A DNA stretch of 64,000 nucleotides, taken from Dehalococcoidia bacterium. GTDB taxonomy: Bacteria; Chloroflexota; Dehalococcoidia; Lucifugimonadales; Australimonadaceae. Below, piece after piece: positions 4,200-62,992 of the stretch. The stretch lies in assembly GCA_965219845.1 (NCBI GenBank), contig CBDCOP010000006.1:294670-358669 (forward strand). The letters are read 5' to 3'. The position numbers and the translations under genes are program-made. The first letter of the stretch is position 1, and each line of letters begins with the position of its first letter. The notes under the pieces are model-generated. The model was not told where the DNA came from. It worked only from the letters and a program-made list of their open reading frames with translations, and did not search any database.

Positions 4200-5372
4200 C
4201 TACTCGATAGCGGCGATCCCCTCGATTGCCACGAGGCAGTCTGGGTTGGGCAACCCAAGAACGGCGAAGTCTGTGCTTGTTGGAGGCGCCCCGGCGTAGA
4301 AGGCCTCGCGCGCCTTGCGTACGTTGGGGAAGTAGTCTGGTCGGGCCATGTAAGTCGTTGTCCGCACCATGCTGGACCGGCTCCCCCCGGCCGCCCCCAG
4401 AGCAGCATCCAGATTCTGGTACACTTGGTCGAGTTGGGCGTCGATGTCACCCTTGCCTACGACATTGCCGGAGGGGTCCATAGCGGCTTGCACAGCAATA
4501 TAGGCGATGCCGTCAGCCACCACTACCTGGCTAGACCCGTCGACCGGCGTCATCAGCGTCGGAGGGTTGAGGTACCGCTTCTCACCACCAATTACAGCCG
4601 TCGCCTCGACTTCAATCACACCGACGGGGTCAGGACCAACGCTCCACACGCACATCGACGTGCAGGCGGGAGCGTGGTCGCCGTAGAACTCTGCCTGGGC
4701 CGTCACGGCACCCTCATAGTAGCGGAAATGGGTGAAATACGTGAGGTGGCGGACGACATCGTTCTTGGTGGCTCCTGCCGCGTGGAGGACATTCTCCATA
4801 TGCCGGTAGGACATCTCCGCCTGAACCCCAACGTCGCACGGGCCAACCATCTTGCCGTAGTCCCGGGCCATCTGCCCAGTGGTGTACACGACGTTACCCG
4901 CCCTGGCGCCTTGGGGGTGCCCGCTGGTCTGCTGTATCTCCGGTGGGTTGATGGGTTGGAGGGTTGCTGCTGTAGTGCCAACCGAACCGATGGCGTCGAC
5001 TTCCACTAGTACGTTGGAGCCGACATGGGCTGGTATGACTACGGTGGTGCTCGCGGCCGGACGCGCCCCGCTGGATAGCACAGGCAGATACTCTTCGCGC
5101 GCGCGCACAACCGCTCCGAAGTACTCCGGCCGCGTTACATAGATGCTAACCTTGAGGACGCTATGCATCCCGCTACCGACGGACGCAAGGGCGTCCGCCA
5201 CGCCCTTGAAGGCTAGGGACGCTTGGGCATCGGCGTCGCCGATGCCCAAGACCTCACCGCCAGGGCCAAAGGGGCCGTGCCCGGCAACATAAACAGTGTC
5301 GCCCGCGCGCACCACCTCGCTGACCGAACCAAGTGGCCCAATACCCGCAGGGTTGTTTCGCTCGATTGCCAT
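4200..5372 (-). CDS. Single polypeptide with three tandem RidA/YjgF/L-PSP domains
   Basis: 390-aa ORF. Three ~125-130 aa modules each show the RidA pattern, for example VRAGDTVYVAGHG...VLKVSIYV...VEVDAIG; ARAGNVVYTTGQ...VVRHLTYF...IEVEATA; VVADGIAYIAVQ...MVRTTTYM...VAIEGIAAIE. Confidence 0.8.
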   Translation of the reverse strand: MAIERNNPAGIGPLGSVSEVVRAGDTVYVAGHGPFGPGGEVLGIGDADAQASLAFKGVADALASVGSGMHSVLKVSIYVTRPEYFGAVVRAREEYLPVLSSGARPAASTTVVIPAHVGSNVLVEVDAIGSVGTTAATLQPINPPEIQQTSGHPQGARAGNVVYTTGQMARDYGKMVGPCDVGVQAEMSYRHMENVLHAAGATKNDVVRHLTYFTHFRYYEGAVTAQAEFYGDHAPACTSMCVWSVGPDPVGVIEVEATAVIGGEKRYLNPPTLMTPVDGSSQVVVADGIAYIAVQAAMDPSGNVVGKGDIDAQLDQVYQNLDAALGAAGGSRSSMVRTTTYMARPDYFPNVRKAREAFYAGAPPTSTDFAVLGLPNPDCLVAIEGIAAIE

Positions 5373-5412
5373 GCTATGGTTGTCTGCTCTCTCCGCCTGT
5401 GCGCTTTCCCTG

Positions 5413-6600
5413 CTAGCCGCCCAGCGTTCGCATTTTCATTTCCAGCTTGCCGAGCCGCCGCGCGCCGTTGGATTCGACAACAATCGTGTTTCCTGCGCGG
5501 TTGCGGCGCTTGCCGTCAGCCGTGACGACTGCTGGCTTGAGGATGAAGCACTGCCCTTGCCTGACGAGCTGACCGTCCATGGTGCCAGGCCGGACCATCG
5601 GGCCGTCCTCGGCGAGGCCCATACCGTGCCCTAAGAATCCGCCCGTGTATTCGGAACTGTACTTCTTGATGGTGTCCTGGGTAATCTGAATCAGATCGTT
5701 CCATGGCACGCCGGGCTTCATCGCCTCCAACACGGCGTTGAAGCAGTCAAGCGAGATATCGAACAGCGTTTGGTACTCCTGAGGAGGCGTGCCGACGCAA
5801 AAGGTCTCGTCTCCTTGGGCCATGTAGCCCATGTATTTGGCGTCGAACTCAGTGAAGATGATGTCGTTGGCCCCGAGGCTCCGGAACGTGGGCATCAGCC
5901 ATGTCTGGTTGGGCTCGGGCTCTGCTACGAAAAGAGCCATCGTGGGCAACTCCCCGCCGCCGCGAACCATGGCGCTTATCATCTGGCCGTACACTTCGTG
6001 CTCGGTCACGCCGGGACGGGCCGATTCAAAAAGTGCCTCACTTGCCTTGTCTGCGAGATCGGCTGCACGCTCCATGAAGACGATCTCCTCCGGACTCTTT
6101 TCCATCCGGACTTCCTGCATCATCTCGGTAACGTCTTCGAAATGCGCCTCCCGCAGCCCCGAGCGAACGTTCTCCCACTCGGTGTGGGAAACCGAGCCCT
6201 CGGGGTCGCGGAGGTGCCCCTGCAGCCCGACGACGCCGATTCTCCCGCTTTCGTGGCCCGCATCCTTGACCGCTTGGACGATCGACTCGCTCCACATACC
6301 AGTCTTGCCCCGAGTGTCCTCCACCCAGTTCTGAGCACGCTTCCACCACTCCCGCCGCTGCGGGTCACGCACGATGGCAACCGGGTCGCCCTCAATCGGG
6401 AACACTGCCGCAACGCCCGTGCAATTGCCTCCAATGCCCGTTAGGTAGCGAATATCAATTTGATAGTTGTCCCAGTCCCCGTTGCTGTGGGGTAATACCA
6501 GACAGTCCAACCCCTGCGCCACCATCTGGGCTCGAACCGCCCCATAGCGGCGATCTCGCTCCTCCTTCGAGAACCTCGGGAAACTGACTTCGTCCAACAT
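5413..6600 (-). CDS. M24-family metallohydrolase (creatinase / Xaa-Pro dipeptidase-like)
   Basis: ORF 5413..7059(-) is over-extended; the ATG at 6600 follows GGAGGGG. Creatinase/prolidase-type N-domain followed by a pita-bread domain (FTEFDAKYMGYMAQGDETF..., GHGMGL). 395 aa. Confidence 0.75.
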   Translation of the reverse strand: MLDEVSFPRFSKEERDRRYGAVRAQMVAQGLDCLVLPHSNGDWDNYQIDIRYLTGIGGNCTGVAAVFPIEGDPVAIVRDPQRREWWKRAQNWVEDTRGKTGMWSESIVQAVKDAGHESGRIGVVGLQGHLRDPEGSVSHTEWENVRSGLREAHFEDVTEMMQEVRMEKSPEEIVFMERAADLADKASEALFESARPGVTEHEVYGQMISAMVRGGGELPTMALFVAEPEPNQTWLMPTFRSLGANDIIFTEFDAKYMGYMAQGDETFCVGTPPQEYQTLFDISLDCFNAVLEAMKPGVPWNDLIQITQDTIKKYSSEYTGGFLGHGMGLAEDGPMVRPGTMDGQLVRQGQCFILKPAVVTADGKRRNRAGNTIVVESNGARRLGKLEMKMRTLGG

Positions 6601-57882: not shown

Positions 57883-59219
57883 CCATCGTTTCCCCAGAGC
57901 AGGCCAGAGCTGCGGCGGAAGGGATACTGGAGAGAGCACTCCGTTCCGCCGACGAGGCGGAAGTCTTCTACGCCGCGTCGTCCAGCACGCCCGTGCATTT
58001 CGAAGCGAACGTCATCAAGGGGGTGGACGCGAACGATGCGATGGGTGCGGCGCTCCGCATCATCAAGGACGGGCGCGTCGGCTTCAGCTCCACGTCCAAC
58101 CTGGACGATCCGCAGGCGCTGGTGGACGCCGCAGTCGAGACAGCCCCGTTCGGCGCTGAGGCGCAGTTCGAGTTTCCCGAAGTCCAGACCTACCCGGACG
58201 TGCGCCCCTATGACTCCTCCGTGGACGAAGCGACGCTCGAAGAGATGGTGGCGCTGGGCGAACGGGCCATCGCGGAACTGCGCGCGTACTCTACTGAGGC
58301 GCAGGTAGAGGGCGGCGTCGGCAAGTCCACGTCCACCATCGCGCTGGTCAACAGCAGGGGCGGCAGCGTTGCTTACGAGCGGTCCCGTTTCCAGCTGGGG
58401 TTCGAAGGCACCGTGATACGCGGCGAGGACATGCTGTTCACGATGGACAGTGAGAGCAGTATCTCCGCTCTGAGCGACCCCTCCGGCGTCGTGGCTTCGG
58501 TCATCCGCCAGCTCGAATGGGCGAAAGAGACCGCATCGGTCGAGACGAAGTCCATGCCCGTCGTGATGATGCCAACCGCGGTGCGGAGCGTGCTCCTTGC
58601 TCCGTTGCTCGCCGGGCTGAACGGCAAGTCAGTCCTGCAGGGCACGTCGCCGCTAGTGGGGCGGCTGGGCGAGCGCATCGTGGACGAACGGTTCAGCCTG
58701 ACGGACGACCCCACGCTCGCGGGCGTGGCGGGGGCCCGCCCCGCTGACGACGAGTGTGTGGCGAGCCGCCGCCTGCCGCTCATCGCCTCCGGCGCTGCGT
58801 CTGCGTTCTTCTACGACCTGCAGACGGCTGGGCAGGCGGGCGCCGCAAGCACCGGATCAGGCGAGCGCGGGCTCGGCTCGCTGCCGGGGCCGTCGGCGAG
58901 CGTGCTCCTCGTGGACGAGGGCGACGCGACACTGGACGACATCATCGCAAGCATGGACGAGGCGATCATCGTGGAGCGGCTGCTCGGGGCAGGGCAGAGC
59001 AACGTGCTTGGCGGAGACTTCAATGCGAACGTGCTGCTGGGATATAAGGTGGAGCGCGGCCGGGTGGTCGGCCGAGTGAAGAACACGATGATTTCCGGCA
59101 ACGCATACCGGGCGCTGAACGACGTGCTGGCGCTGGGCAGCGAGGGCCGCTGGATGGGCGGCGGGCTACACGCGCCCCCCATAGCGGTCGGTGGCATATC
59201 GGTCTCCAGCAAGGGGTAG
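57861..59219 (+). CDS. pmbA: PmbA/TldE-family protein (TldD partner)
   Basis: Tail of ORF 57702..59219. Conserved N-terminus begins ~57885 (IVSPEQARAAAEGILERAL). Start codon unresolved: GTG 57861 has no SD; ATC 57885 has a perfect SD. Confidence 0.8.
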   Translation: MPHRRSVAIVSPEQARAAAEGILERALRSADEAEVFYAASSSTPVHFEANVIKGVDANDAMGAALRIIKDGRVGFSSTSNLDDPQALVDAAVETAPFGAEAQFEFPEVQTYPDVRPYDSSVDEATLEEMVALGERAIAELRAYSTEAQVEGGVGKSTSTIALVNSRGGSVAYERSRFQLGFEGTVIRGEDMLFTMDSESSISALSDPSGVVASVIRQLEWAKETASVETKSMPVVMMPTAVRSVLLAPLLAGLNGKSVLQGTSPLVGRLGERIVDERFSLTDDPTLAGVAGARPADDECVASRRLPLIASGAASAFFYDLQTAGQAGAASTGSGERGLGSLPGPSASVLLVDEGDATLDDIIASMDEAIIVERLLGAGQSNVLGGDFNANVLLGYKVERGRVVGRVKNTMISGNAYRALNDVLALGSEGRWMGGGLHAPPIAVGGISVSSKG

Positions 59220-59221
59220 AC

Positions 59222-60151
59222 GTGACGCTCGGAGACGTCATCCCCCGACTGCTCGACGCCGGTAGCGAACTGAAGCCGTCGCTCCTTGGAAAGCTCAGCG
59301 GCCTGACACTCGAGGAGCAGCGGGAACTGCTGGGGAGATGGGGTGACATCCCCACGTCCCGGCGGCTCATGATCATCCGCGCCGTGACCGGTATGGCTGA
59401 GGACAACATCGAGATGGAGTTTACCGGGCTGCTGTGCGCCGCGCTCGAGGACGGCGACGTTCCCGTACGGGTAAGCGCCGCTGCCGGACTGTGGGAGACG
59501 GGCGACCGCACCGTCATCGCGCCGCTTGCGGCGATGTTGGAGTGCGACGAGTCCCACGAGGCACGCGCCGCCGCCGCCAGTGCGCTTGGCCACTTCGCCG
59601 AGCTCGCAGAGGAAGGGAAACTGATCGAGCGCGACGCCGCACTGGTGCGGAACGCACTCCTTGGCGCGCTGGAAGACGGCGAGGAAGAGACCGCGGTGCG
59701 CCGCCGCGCGCTGGAAGCGATAGCGCGCATACGCCACCCGGACGTTCCCGGCTGGATACGGTGGGCGTACGGGAGCGGCGAGCCGCTGCTGCGGCAGAGC
59801 GCCGTCTACGCGATGGGGCGCACCTGCGACGCGGTGTGGCTGCCCTTCATCGAGCAGGAGTTCGACAGCAGCGTGGCGGCTATGCGTTTCGAGGCGGCCA
59901 ACGCTGCCCGTGAGCTCGCGGACCCGAAGACGCTGCCCCACCTCCACGGACTGGTGACCGACGACGACCCGCAGGTCGCGCTCGCCGCGGTGCAGGCTAT
60001 CGGAGGCATCGGCGGCGCGGCGGCGCGGAAGCTGCTCAAACACTACGTCGATGAGGGCGACCCCACGCTGAGCGAGGCCGCCCAGGAAGCGTTGCGCGTG
60101 CTCGAAGCCGACGAAGGGGACTTCTCGATGCTGACGCTGGAGGAGCGATAG
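59222..60151 (+). CDS. HEAT-repeat (PBS-lyase HEAT-like) protein
   Basis: GTG 3 nt after the pmbA stop. Repeated DxxVRxxAAxALG-type units (DGDVPVRVSAAAGLW, HEARAAAASALGH, ETAVRRRALEAIA, DPQVALAAVQAIG). Confidence 0.7.
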   Translation: MTLGDVIPRLLDAGSELKPSLLGKLSGLTLEEQRELLGRWGDIPTSRRLMIIRAVTGMAEDNIEMEFTGLLCAALEDGDVPVRVSAAAGLWETGDRTVIAPLAAMLECDESHEARAAAASALGHFAELAEEGKLIERDAALVRNALLGALEDGEEETAVRRRALEAIARIRHPDVPGWIRWAYGSGEPLLRQSAVYAMGRTCDAVWLPFIEQEFDSSVAAMRFEAANAARELADPKTLPHLHGLVTDDDPQVALAAVQAIGGIGGAAARKLLKHYVDEGDPTLSEAAQEALRVLEADEGDFSMLTLEER

Positions 60152-60244
60152 GCATGGCGGGCCCCGGGCGATCGGCAATCGCATATCCTGTGTGGGTCTG
60201 CCAGTGGTGGGCTTGCCGCAACGACCTCCGTTCTGCCTCGAAGG

Positions 60245-60478
60245 ATGGCCGTAGTGAAGAGGTCGCTTAGGAACGTCCGGCAGCGTCAGGCGGTGAGAGC
60301 TTTCGTGAGGCTTGGGGGCATCGAACTGAGAGGACGAGGGAAAGGCAGCCATAAACTGGTCCGTATGCCGAATGGCCATACGCTGACCATACCCGGCGGA
60401 ACGCTCAACGTCTGGCTGTTGCGAGGCGTACTGAAGGATGCGGACGTGGCCGAGGAGAAGTTCCTGGAGGCGTTGTGA
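60245..60478 (+). CDS. HicA/YcfA-like toxin
   Basis: 77-aa ORF. The pattern RQAVRAFVRLGGIELRGRGKGSHKLVRMPNGHTLTIPGGTLNVWLLRGVLKDADVAEEKF fits the YcfA/HicA fold signature (GSH...TIP..G.L....L..VLK.A). Confidence 0.65.
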   Translation: MAVVKRSLRNVRQRQAVRAFVRLGGIELRGRGKGSHKLVRMPNGHTLTIPGGTLNVWLLRGVLKDADVAEEKFLEAL

Positions 60479-60503
60479 AGGACTGTAGCGAGGAGCGGGC
60501 AAG

Positions 60504-61466
60504 ATGACGACGCAGGTGAGGCGAAAGACGATCGAGTATACGTGCGAGGATTGCGGCAAGACGTTTCAATCCGGCAGGAGGCGATCAGGCCCGCTGTACT
60601 GTGCGTCGTGCGTGGAGGAACGGAGGAAGGTTGGCCTCGGCCCGCGTCAAACTGCACCGGAAGGGAGGGCCGGGCACGTAGTGGTTGGAGGCGTTCGATA
60701 CAAAGTGCTCATCTATCCTGCTGAGGAGGGCGGGTTCTGGGGCAAGGCGCCGCAGTTCCCGGGTTGTTTCTCCCAAGGCGGGAGCGAGGAGGAATTGCGT
60801 GCGAACCTGGAGGACGCCGTCGCGGCAGTTATCGAGGCATCCGGCGTGCAGTTCGAGGATCAGATACGACTGAGCGTCGAGGAGTTCGTGCAGGAAGCGC
60901 CTCGGTGGCATGCAAAGTACCTAGCGCATAACCCCGGAGTGCCTGCACTCGAAGAGGCCATCGGCGAAAGCAGAGCGCGTGGGTATCTGGACAGGAGCGA
61001 TCTCAAAGGCGTCGTCCTGTGGGGCGGCAACCCCTACGGCATGTGGGGGAAGATCGATCGTCGCAACAGTGATGAACGGATAGCACGTTGCTCCTCCGAG
61101 GCCATCGAACTGCTCGCCGACCCGGAGGCAGCGCTGGAACGCATCACGGGAATCCATGGGCTCGGCGCGAGTTTCGGCAGCAAGGCACTGGCGTTCCTCT
61201 CCCCGCAGACCTGCCCCATCCTCGATTCCGTCATAGACAAGGGATGCCTTATCTGGGCGGACAACTGGACGCACCGCTATGCAGACCTGGCCGCTCTCTG
61301 CGGGCATATCGCGGCGCGTCAGCCGGGACCGAACCCCGCGAGGCCCAAAGGCGCATGGTACGTGCGCGATGCCGAGATGGCGTTGTTCCAGTTTGCATGG
61401 CGCGGTCCCGGAGAGCCCGGACGGTACATCGTGGGGAAACTCCCTCTTGGCGGCGCGGACCCATAG
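60504..61466 (+). CDS. Three-part fusion: N-terminal CxxC...CxxC zinc ribbon, HicB-like antitoxin domain, ~200-aa C-terminal domain with HhH-like motif
   Basis: 320-aa ORF 25 nt after the hicA-like gene. Zinc ribbon YTCEDCG...YCASC. HicB core YKVLIYPAEEGGFWGKAPQFPGCFSQGGSEEELRANLEDAV. C-terminal ITGIHGLGASFGSKALAFLSPQTCPILDSVI. Confidence 0.6.
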   Translation: MTTQVRRKTIEYTCEDCGKTFQSGRRRSGPLYCASCVEERRKVGLGPRQTAPEGRAGHVVVGGVRYKVLIYPAEEGGFWGKAPQFPGCFSQGGSEEELRANLEDAVAAVIEASGVQFEDQIRLSVEEFVQEAPRWHAKYLAHNPGVPALEEAIGESRARGYLDRSDLKGVVLWGGNPYGMWGKIDRRNSDERIARCSSEAIELLADPEAALERITGIHGLGASFGSKALAFLSPQTCPILDSVIDKGCLIWADNWTHRYADLAALCGHIAARQPGPNPARPKGAWYVRDAEMALFQFAWRGPGEPGRYIVGKLPLGGADP

Positions 61467-61468
61467 GT

Positions 61469-61915
61469 ATGGCGGGCGGTCTGCGGGTTGCTCAGGCGGT
61501 ATCCGCCGGCGGCGTTGTCTGCGAGGAGCATGAAGGCGGCGTGATGGTGGCGCTCTGCGGCCGTCTGAAGACCGGTTTGTGGGCGTTGCCCAAGGGCACG
61601 CCGGACGGAGCCGAATCGCTGGAAGAGACGGCGTTGCGCGAGGTGCGGGAGGAGACCGGGCTGGCCGTGGAGATAGCGGCTTCGCTGGGGCACATCGAGT
61701 ACTGGTTCACCCGCGACGCCGAGCGTATCCACAAGCGGGTCTACTTCTACCTGATGCGTCCGTGCGGCGGCTCGTTCGACGACCATGACCCGGAGTTCGA
61801 CGTCGTGCGCTGGGTCTCCCCGGCGGACGCGCTCGACACGCTGACCTACCCCTCGGAGCGCGAAGTGCTGCGCAGGGCGATGGCCGCGCTGGGAGCAGGA
61901 GAGGCCACAGCATGA
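61469..61915 (+). CDS. NUDIX hydrolase
   Basis: ATG 3 nt after the upstream stop. Complete Nudix box GTPDGAESLEETALREVREETGL (Gx5Ex7REUxEExGU). 148 aa. Confidence 0.9.
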   Translation: MAGGLRVAQAVSAGGVVCEEHEGGVMVALCGRLKTGLWALPKGTPDGAESLEETALREVREETGLAVEIAASLGHIEYWFTRDAERIHKRVYFYLMRPCGGSFDDHDPEFDVVRWVSPADALDTLTYPSEREVLRRAMAALGAGEATA

Positions 61916-62451
61916 CAGAGACCGGCATCCGCGGACAGAAGGTCGTGCTCCGCGAGAAGCGGATCGAGGACGGCGAGGACGACCACCGCTGGCGGTCGGA
62001 CCAGGAGCTTGCGGAGCTCGACGCCGCGCCGCGCCTGCGGCAGCCGCTCCCCGACTTCCTGCGCGACTACGGGAATGAGTTGAAGTACCCCACGCCGTGG
62101 GTGCGCCGCTACGGCATCGACACGCTGGAAGGTCTGCACATCGGCAACTGCATGGTCTACGACATCGACAACTTCAAGGGACAGTGCGAGGTCGGCGTCC
62201 TCGTCGGGGACCGGGACTACTGGGGCAGGGGCTACGGTCGGGAGGCGGTGCAACTGCTGGTGGAGCAGTGCTTCAAGAACACGGCGATGAACCGGCTCTA
62301 CCTGCACACGCTGGAGTGGAACGCCCGCGCTCGCCGCGCGTTCGCGATGTGCGGGTTCCGGGAAGTGAAGCCCGTGCGCCGCGCCGGTTACAACTTCATC
62401 CTGATGGAGCTGATCCGCGATGAGTGGGAGGCGATGCAGGACGGGGCGTAA
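61912..62451 (+). CDS. GNAT-family N-acetyltransferase (RimJ/RimL-like)
   Basis: ATGA overlap with the Nudix gene. The motif DYWGRGYGREAVQLLVEQCF and NARARRAFAMCGFRE are typical of the RimJ/L subgroup. 179 aa. Confidence 0.85.
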   Translation: MTETGIRGQKVVLREKRIEDGEDDHRWRSDQELAELDAAPRLRQPLPDFLRDYGNELKYPTPWVRRYGIDTLEGLHIGNCMVYDIDNFKGQCEVGVLVGDRDYWGRGYGREAVQLLVEQCFKNTAMNRLYLHTLEWNARARRAFAMCGFREVKPVRRAGYNFILMELIRDEWEAMQDGA

Positions 62452-62477
62452 CGGCCTCGCTCATCCCCAGCCCCGAC

Positions 62478-62565
62478 CATTCACCCCCATCCTAACCTTC
62501 CCCCATCAAGGGGGAAGGGATCAACCAGCCCCGTTCCACCCCTGGCCGACGCTATGCAAGGGTTT
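62478..62565. repeat. REP cluster (B unit, A-flank remnant)
   Basis: ATTCACCCCCATCCTAACCTTCCCCCATCAAGGGGGAAGGGATCAACC; an unoccupied IS110-type target site sits at 62492|62493. Confidence 0.9.
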
Positions 62566-62569
62566 CGGA

Positions 62570-62992
62570 CTAGCGCGACGGTAGCGCAACGACTGCCTCA
62601 CCCGTGGTCGTGCGGAGGCCCGCGCCGTTCTCAATCCAGATATCGCAGCGTACGGAGCCGGCCTCCTCGTCCCGCTCCACCACCGTTCCTTTGCACGTCA
62701 GCACGTCGCCCGGAACGTCCATCTCGCGGTAGCGCACGGAGAGCGACAGGAGCCGCCCCTCGGCGCCTGCCCAGTCCGTGACGAGCTGGCCGAGGTACGC
62801 GCTCTTCAGCGCGCCGTGGAGTATGACACCGGGCAGCCCCTGCGCGTTGGCGAAGTCCTTGTCGTAGTGGATCTCGTAGAAGTCGCCGGACGCGCCTGCG
62901 TACATCACCAGCTGGCGGGTCGTCGGCTCCTTAACCAGCGCGGGCAGCTCCGCGCCGACCGCGGCGTCGTCCAGGTAGGTCTGCGTGCTCAT
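62570..62992 (-). CDS. MaoC-like (R)-hydratase hotdog-fold subunit
   Basis: ATG at 62992 in ORF 62570..63493(-). Hydratase motif YAGASGDFYEIHYDKDFANAQGLPGVILHG. 140 aa. Confidence 0.8.
   Translation of the reverse strand: MSTQTYLDDAAVGAELPALVKEPTTRQLVMYAGASGDFYEIHYDKDFANAQGLPGVILHGALKSAYLGQLVTDWAGAEGRLLSLSVRYREMDVPGDVLTCKGTVVERDEEAGSVRCDIWIENGAGLRTTTGEAVVALPSR

Follow-up and report, generated by a model that had tools for sequence, protein, structure and literature searches.

Can a toxin that cuts RNA be governed by a protein that inspects the bases of DNA? The question is raised by a pair of genes in a marine Chloroflexi genome (Dehalococcoidia bacterium, contig CBDCOP010000006.1), where a short hicA-like gene is followed by a longer open reading frame (ORF) that joins a zinc ribbon, a HicB antitoxin core and a C-terminal domain of about 200 residues. 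We analysed this locus within a 64-kb stretch of the contig, hereafter the window, and named the longer ORF X; L-numbers denote relative loci or contigs, and P-numbers relative proteins. We find that the pair is a real, unusual and rare variant of HicAB, not a new kind of system, and that its added C-terminal domain may read or process DNA bases.

The two genes lie on the forward strand, as do all features of the window described here unless stated otherwise. According to the ORF list and the raw sequence, hicA occupies positions 60245 to 60478 (77 aa) and is separated by 25 nt from X at 60504 to 61466 (320 aa), and the spacer carries a GAGGAG Shine-Dalgarno sequence. An alternative hicA start, the GTG at 60254, has a better-placed Shine-Dalgarno sequence (GAAGGA), and one gene caller chose the corresponding 74-aa form. 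The HicA protein passes the cut-off of the HicA_toxin family PF07927 (29.6 bits, cut-off 27) and matches PDB structures from T. thermophilus (1whz, E = 6.6e-4) and S. pneumoniae (HicA, 5yrz, E = 3.4e-3). Its GKGSH motif, which contains His36, aligns with the GKGSH of 5yrz_B and is kept in the L001 orthologue; the catalytic role of the G-S-H histidine is taken from the HicA literature. Coordinates and family agree with the original prediction of a 77-aa HicA-like gene, a 25-nt spacer and a 320-aa ORF. By family membership, hicA would encode a ribosome-independent RNase toxin of the HicA type.

X opens with a zinc ribbon (C14-x2-C17-x15-C33-x2-C36; residues 14-36, positions 60543-60611) that is followed by a GLGPRQ motif; its matches to Zn_ribbon_8 and FmdB are weak, and the Pfam zinc-ribbon match covers residues 11-38. 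The HicB core follows at residues ~55-113 (60666-60842), with four strands and one helix. Its match to HicB_lk_antitox PF15919 over residues 66-112 (E = 4e-4, 20.9 bits) is below the cut-off of 27, and UPF0150 matches it with E = 2.6e-3. In the structure that AlphaFold2 predicts for X from 40 homologues (mean predicted local distance difference test, pLDDT, 89.5), the same residues are assigned by Foldseek, with probability 1.0, to the N-domains of the solved HicB proteins 6u0i, 6hpb, 4p7d/4p78 and 6g1c, and they superpose on them with root-mean-square deviations of 0.8-3.3 Å over 45-59 residues. The fusion of zinc ribbon, HicB and a ~200-aa C-terminal domain, read from the sequence by the original prediction, is upheld by the ribbon cysteines, by the Foldseek assignment and by the PF21790 match described below. 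The adjacency of hicA and X on one strand with a 25-nt spacer is kept in L001, L003 and L004. No match to the ribbon-helix-helix (RHH) or helix-turn-helix (HTH) DNA-binding domains of HicB classes 3 and 4 was found in X, its C-terminus being the PF21790 domain, and a Pfam scan found no nuclease domain in X. A homology search with residues 1-121 (zinc ribbon and HicB) returned no relatives. As a member of the HicB family, X would be the antitoxin of HicA, its core (~55-113) binding and blocking the toxin, and we consider it likely that the two form a toxin-antitoxin pair.

The remainder of X, residues 118-320 (60855-61463), belongs to the Pfam family PF21790, named 'OGG' and described as putative 8-oxoguanine DNA glycosylase-like, whose profile matches residues 171-272 (E = 6.9e-6). 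The full-length protein scores 26.3 bits (cut-off 27), and residues 118-320 searched alone score 28.3 bits. Among 90 relatives, 46 match PF21790 at E <= 0.01, the best at 2.5e-11. A model of this domain built on the 90 sequences is all-helical (pLDDT 96.1, predicted template-modelling score 0.91), and 10 of its 34 weak Foldseek matches in the PDB are HhH-GPD (helix-hairpin-helix/Gly-Pro-Asp) glycosylases (MutY/MUTYH, endonuclease III, SsOgg and mOGG1); matches among viral structures are likewise weak. The original prediction had pointed to profile and structure searches of the C-domain; the former carried it past the PF21790 cut-off, and the latter, by Foldseek against the PDB, returned no significant fold neighbour, with glycosylase matches at E = 0.4-9 and TM <= 0.30. 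When the family profile is compared with the PDB, the best matches are Ogg2-type 8-oxoguanine glycosylase/AP lyases (9o02, E = 0.012; 9o00, 0.24; 3fhg, 0.27).

The resemblance centres on residues 215-243 of X (TGIHGLGASFGSKALAFLSPQTCPILDSV, 61146-61232), which comprise a GLG hairpin, the loop SPQTCP and Asp241. The Ogg2 alignment runs ungapped through hairpin, loop and Asp, and Asp241 aligns with the catalytic Asp of the glycosylases. With hhalign, the same motif residues fall without gaps on the HhH-GPD motif of E. coli endonuclease III; that comparison of the family profile with the single Nth sequence is not significant (probability 0.4%), yet it aligned the expected motif. The helix-hairpin-helix/OGG-like motif that the original prediction had suggested agrees with the PF21790 match and with the alignments to Ogg2 and endonuclease III. 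In the 90-sequence alignment, where mean column identity is 23%, Lys227 and Asp241, spaced by 14 residues, occupy the only two invariant columns, and 65 of 73 additional metagenomic relatives carry the pattern [FY][GAS]SK-x13-D. Lys227 lies 4 residues, or one helical turn, past the position of the canonical catalytic Lys, which Ser223 occupies in X. No iron-sulfur cluster motif is visible in the C-domain sequence. By its sequence, the C-domain is a PF21790 member with an HhH-GPD-like motif in which the Asp is retained, and it appears to be a very divergent HhH-GPD module of the base-flipping, base-inspecting type. It may be a mono- or bifunctional glycosylase or a non-catalytic base reader. 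Since Lys and Asp are absolutely conserved, we favour catalysis, and the domain has probably kept an enzymatic activity or, failing that, the ability to read bases.

The family is large and the fusion is rare. Close homologues of X number only four in a collection of 5.8 billion proteins, and a scan of JGI metagenomes with a profile of the close relatives (A1) found no relatives. The C-domain profile has 40 homologues, and a search of 1.84 billion representatives gave 409 clusters at E <= 1e-3, mostly ~200-aa single-domain proteins (a family size of '~400 clusters', counted at 50% identity). A zinc ribbon with a GLGP.Q motif stands at the N-terminus of P0003, P0007, P0026, P0047, P0052 and P0062, and another, overlooked by gene callers, lies in frame upstream of P0004, P0005, P0020 and P0024 (at L005, L028, L029 and L031). 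Because the ribbon recurs as an N-terminal module among the relatives, the ancestral architecture was that of a zinc ribbon, a linker and a PF21790 domain. A HicB core in the linker occurs only in X, its 99%-identical copies (P0001; L003 and L004) and the 66%-identical P0002 (L001), and no HicB match was found in any other N-terminally extended member of the family. In P0002, the X orthologue encoded at 6001-6873 of L001, the ribbon is gone through an in-frame deletion of ~28-30 aa that left a remnant GP.QT motif, and the HicB core and PF21790 domain are kept.

Both genes appear to be maintained. Their ORFs are intact in four contigs, namely the window, two that are 99% identical to it (L003 and L004) and the 66%-identical orthologue (L001), and because X is uninterrupted in all of them a frameshift artefact, one outcome by which the original prediction could have failed, is excluded. 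Relative to L001, the ratio of non-synonymous to synonymous substitution rates (dN/dS) is 0.17 for hicA and 0.22 for the whole of X (0.30 for the HicB core and 0.17 for the PF21790 domain), compared with 0.08-0.16 for the flanking genes. Both genes are under purifying selection.

We found that hicA and X are an insertion into a conserved housekeeping operon. On the 5′ side lie TldD, PmbA and a HEAT-repeat gene (59222-60151; PF13646 HEAT_2, E = 2.7e-27), which is the last host-operon gene before the insert, and on the 3′ side, outside the cassette as well, come the resident Nudix (61469-61915; PF00293, E = 8e-21) and GNAT (61912-62451; PF13302, E = 4.6e-19) genes, followed on the opposite strand by MaoC-type dehydratase genes. 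When 185,579 species genomes were searched with the HEAT protein, 17 loci were obtained in metagenome-assembled genomes of Dehalococcoidia, Chloroflexota and SAR202, at 81-91% identity. All loci of sufficient length, at least 15 of them, have the order TldD-PmbA-HEAT-Nudix-GNAT-MaoC, with the Nudix gene directly after the HEAT gene and, by tblastn, neither hicA nor X. The insert-free sites consist of the HEAT stop codon, a 2-3-nt spacer and the Nudix ATG (...TAGGCATGGCGGGCGG...), with a single copy of the junction.

In the window, the cassette is flanked by the direct repeat TAGGYATGGCGGGC. The 14-nt sequence TAGG[C/T]ATGGCGGGC occurs twice, as a left copy (TAGGCATGGCGGGC, 60149-60162) in which the stop codon of the HEAT gene and two further nucleotides are followed by a duplicate of the initial 9 nt of the Nudix gene, and as a right copy (TAGGTATGGCGGGC, 61464-61477) made of the X stop codon and the genuine Nudix start. 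The repeat extends to 21 nt with 86% identity (60142-60162 and 61457-61477, spacing 1315), and L001 carries two perfect copies of the junction repeat. The insert measures 1315 bp and has a GC content of 0.61-0.63, compared with 0.67-0.70 in the flanks. These data indicate that positions 60163-61463 are a small cassette of the HicAB kind that moves laterally, or has been repeatedly gained and lost, at the 2-nt HEAT-Nudix junction. The gaps are tiny because the insertion is precise and is flanked by a duplicated 14-bp junction. X is 2 nt from the Nudix gene, which starts at 61469 when the frame is checked, and the GNAT gene overlaps the Nudix stop by ATGA. The original prediction had the overlap right and the gap one nucleotide too wide, at 3 nt. 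From this spacing it had proposed a unit of four genes, which fails as a functional unit because at least 15 related genomes hold the TldD-PmbA-HEAT-Nudix-GNAT operon without hicA or X, and the insertion in the window is flanked by repeats; the linkage to Nudix and GNAT is accidental, and we rejected a functional link to them on synteny. Co-transcription by read-through is still likely.

The cassette and its flanks differ in their divergence. When the window is compared with L001, hicA and X show a synonymous divergence (dS) of 1.10, and the five genes that flank them one of 0.35-0.53. In a neighbour-joining tree built from these flanks, L001 groups with insert-free lineages and not with the window, a result that is only suggestive because the radiation is star-like (the distance of L016, inflated by missing data, was ignored). 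Both cassette-bearing lineages (L001 and L004, whose X proteins are 66% identical) were assembled from one sample, ERZ25067264. The shared sample and the dS of the cassette, about twice that of the flanks, are compatible with lateral exchange among co-resident Dehalococcoidia.

The cassette is probably transcribed by read-through from the host operon. The duplicated Nudix start opens a leader ORF of 38 codons (60154-60270), read from the sequence and unannotated, whose stop lies within the beginning of hicA. In L001 the stop of a corresponding leader ORF (~5651-5757) overlaps the hicA start as ATGGTGA; the leader peptide is not conserved between the window and L001. The leader ORF looks like a side effect of the duplication, and it could tie the translation of hicA to the host operon.

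Some features of the surroundings were recorded alongside. The best NCBIfam match of the Nudix protein is to the N-terminal half of the mycobacterial 8-oxo-(d)GTP phosphatase MutT1 (E = 8e-19, far below cut-off), and the protein weakly matches the PADLOC candidate PDC-S07 (E = 1e-6). In the insert-bearing genomes, a DUF2442 gene with small unannotated neighbours lies just 5′ of TldD (L001 1318-1695, L003 4828-5331, L004 121-639), at a position corresponding to roughly 55 kb in the window. Neither a tRNA gene nor an Rfam family at the gathering threshold was found anywhere in the 64 kb of the window.

We examined the genomic neighbourhoods of PF21790 relatives in a metagenome scan with the family profile, which returned 80 loci whose neighbouring genes were analysed and scanned with Pfam. 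At L076, hicA and a hicB with an HTH tail are followed 3 nt later by a separate PF21790-type gene, and this locus is the unfused counterpart of the arrangement in the window. At L042, a PF21790-type gene precedes hicB (50.8 bits) and hicA (62.4 bits), and at L061 a hicBA pair lies 1.5 kb downstream of the family gene. By a rough estimate, three hicAB pairs in ~0.35 Mb of flanks exceed the typical genomic density about ten-fold or more.

Relatives also recur beside DNA-targeting enzymes. In type I restriction operons, the family gene lies between hsdR and hsdM (L066 1529-2110, L068 3857-4486 and L112 900-1484), with gaps of 5-6 nt in L066 and L068 and the conserved Lys/Asp motif present; in L112 the preceding gene is unannotated and truncated where the contig ends, and the family gene is followed by hsdM and hsdS. 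The family gene inside hsdR-hsdM operons appears to be an undescribed accessory component. Elsewhere it stands between a DUF1156 methylase and a PLD-SNF2 helicase (L080/L081, 3827-4450), before a GmrSD_N+HNH enzyme (L046, 3824-4531) or after a REase-ARP enzyme (L044, 904-1845). No Nudix neighbour was found beside the other family members examined.

A domain of ~140 aa, which we call ND (FIGTA, CG..L.VSWA, W.W..M and GVY motifs), is encoded directly 5′ of zinc-ribbon/PF21790 genes in L002 (5193-5924), L029 and L030, and is fused to the PF21790 domain in P0044, P0053 and P0058 (BLASTP E = 7e-15). ND has no match in the PDB or Pfam and is likely a functional partner of the PF21790 family. The same Dehalococcoidia genomes hold a 30%-identical paralogue of the P0020 type (L005 5076-6696; L027 and L028, ~4700-5700), whose zinc ribbon lies 5′ of the called start and is truncated by gene callers; in L027 the ribbon looks disrupted. 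The paralogue is near an ADP-ribosylglycohydrolase gene in L005 and L028, and in L005 only a GIY_YIG_3 gene matching the PADLOC candidate PDC-M57B (E = 1e-79) lies just upstream. A general pairing of GIY-YIG nuclease and PF21790 was rejected, as the syntenic L027 and L028 are without the gene and it shows no similarity to ND.

How does the cassette compare with known systems? With classical HicAB (E. coli HicAB, Y. pestis HicA3B3 and B. pseudomallei HicAB; Gerdes classes 3 and 4) it shares the order hicA then hicB, a small dsRBD-type HicA with the GSH histidine and the fold of the HicB N-domain. It differs in that X is without the RHH/HTH domain for operator binding and dimerisation and has a zinc ribbon and the ~200-aa PF21790 domain. 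A survey of HicA contexts (PMC10865869) distinguishes 14 classes, in which the HicB of hicAB pairs has an HTH, an RHH or no DNA-binding domain, and large multidomain HicBs (classes 7 and 8) occur in hicBA order only, with other domains; its text is without the words zinc, glycosylase or helix-hairpin. The architecture of X is not among these 14 contexts, as expected from the original prediction that it was unusual, and our literature search found no publication that connects an antitoxin with a DNA glycosylase domain.

The domain itself has closer parallels outside the HicAB family. In the END nucleases (END-PaCF1 and END-Mag), an Ogg1/EndoIII-like C-domain related to PF21790, without catalytic residues, steers the targeting of hypermodified phage DNA, and its partners are fused PLD, NucS-like or McrB modules (10.1101/2025.03.31.646159). 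The cassette shares with them the coupling of a PF21790/EndoIII/Ogg-related domain to an effector that cleaves nucleic acid. Going by the published description of the END nucleases, their effector is a fused DNase or McrB and their sensor is inactivated, whereas X, in which the conserved Asp and an invariant Lys are retained, would use a HicB adaptor to act on a separate RNase, HicA. Relative to the HhH-GPD glycosylases (Ogg2-type 3fhg and 9o00/9o02; endonuclease III), the C-domain is of similar size and all-helical, and its GLG hairpin, Pro-rich loop and Asp align, but the profile matches are at E = 0.012-0.27, TM is at most 0.30 and the nucleophile position is Ser, Ala, Thr or Pro in the PF21790 family.

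The concept of an RNase toxin silenced by a DNA-surveillance protein and released during phage attack has a precedent in the anticodon nuclease PrrC, which is held latent by the type I restriction-modification enzyme EcoprrI. PF21790 relatives are themselves encoded between hsdR and hsdM; the components share no homology, and here the contact would be made by a HicB domain and the DNA-facing part would be glycosylase-like, not a restriction complex. The same survey argues that HicA systems act in defence and cites CapRel-SJ46 as a sensor-antitoxin precedent (PMC10865869). In CapRel-SJ46 the antitoxin part doubles as the infection sensor, as we propose for X, but it is a single polypeptide that senses a phage capsid protein, whereas our proposal has a DNA ligand and a separate toxin and antitoxin.

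We propose that the cassette is a module of the HicAB type in which the antitoxin has been joined to a DNA domain that inspects bases, possibly as a sensor of modified DNA, a reading whose chances we judge to be evenly balanced. X would hold the toxin in check, its zinc ribbon and PF21790 domain surveying DNA all the while; these two parts would contact the DNA and examine or remove its bases. HicA would be set free, and would go on to cleave RNA and arrest the cell, either on loss of X or once X binds or processes its target, a modified or non-canonical base of the sort present in the DNA of invading phages. The sensor/effector role that the original prediction had suggested gains indirect support from C-domain relatives that adjoin separate hicAB genes or lie within restriction-type operons. 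The coupling of DNA sensing to the release of HicA is the weakest step, and we hold it doubtful. The broader idea, in which the antitoxin reads DNA chemistry and PF21790 proteins are general, still-catalytic sensors of modified bases for HicA, type I restriction, PLD-SNF2 and ND effectors, we regard as unlikely.

Several observations weigh against the proposed sensor. Neither HicA nor X matches the defence models of PADLOC-DB v2 at E <= 0.1, the cassette lies outside any defence island, the zinc-ribbon relatives closest to X (in Dehalococcoidia) are found among metabolic genes, and no PF21790-family members were found in IMG/VR viral contigs. The HicB-PF21790 fusion is known from two species-level lineages only, and in one of these, as P0002 shows, the zinc ribbon is dispensable. 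The enrichment of hicAB pairs rests on three loci and an assumed background, and phyla rich in toxin-antitoxin systems would lower it. A search of 59000-62800 detected neither a sigma-70-like promoter nor an intrinsic terminator. At the place of the canonical nucleophile Lys, 18 residues ahead of the Asp, X has Ser223, and the family as a whole has Ser, Ala, Thr or Pro.

The strongest rival holds that hicA and X are a plain addiction module, in which the zinc ribbon and PF21790 domain are fused repair or DNA-binding cargo, or a substitute autoregulatory domain, and the two halves do not signal to each other; because cargo and antitoxin are fused, the cargo could not be lost without losing the antitoxin. 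We consider this possible, if on the unlikely side. It agrees with the apparent ancestry of X, since the free-standing zinc ribbon-linker-PF21790 protein is the ancestral form and the HicB core sits exactly in its variable linker, with the housekeeping-like contexts of close relatives, and with a cassette that acts like a selfish insertion; in classical HicB, moreover, the C-terminal domain serves DNA binding and autoregulation (PMC10865869). One accidental fusion is, however, hard to reconcile with separate hicAB and PF21790 genes being adjacent in unrelated subfamilies (L076 and L042). HhH-GPD-type domains bind the DNA backbone and flipped bases, not specific operators, and a role of the C-domain as a sequence-specific repressor is therefore unlikely.

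Two further explanations fare worse. X could be an 8-oxoguanine-type glycosylase that works with the MutT1-like Nudix protein in oxidative-damage repair, resembling the GO system, with HicA and HicB as nucleic-acid-binding accessories, which is the functional unit of four genes that the original prediction implied. The name of the OGG-like Pfam family, the MutT1 match of the Nudix protein, the 2-nt gap and the ATGA overlap are all in its favour, but in at least 15 genomes without hicA and X the place and spacing of the Nudix and GNAT genes are unchanged, the other family members examined have no Nudix gene beside them, the canonical Ogg catalytic Lys is absent, and hicA keeps its catalytic motif under purifying selection; synteny thus largely refutes this explanation, and we regard it as very unlikely. 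The cassette could instead be a relic, a recent chimeric fusion that is decaying without a maintained function, as its restriction to two lineages, the deletion of the zinc ribbon in one of them and the lack of a detected promoter would allow. Such decay is argued against by purifying dN/dS, at 0.17-0.30 in every domain across a synonymous divergence of ~1.1, and the ORFs are intact in four independent contigs with the family-invariant residues kept, which makes a relic most improbable.

If the proposed sensor is correct, an RNA-cutting toxin may be controlled by a protein that inspects DNA bases in a marine Chloroflexi genome. Few triggers are known for the sensing of phages by toxin-antitoxin modules, and X offers a candidate trigger in modified or damaged DNA. 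The fusion ties the abundant HicAB family to the Ogg/EndoIII-like sensors of hypermodified phage genomes, and its insertion at an operon junction with a duplicated start codon illustrates how such cassettes borrow the expression signals of their host. The uncharacterised PF21790-type family, recurrent in type I restriction operons and beside hicAB, is a candidate for a new DNA glycosylase or reader.

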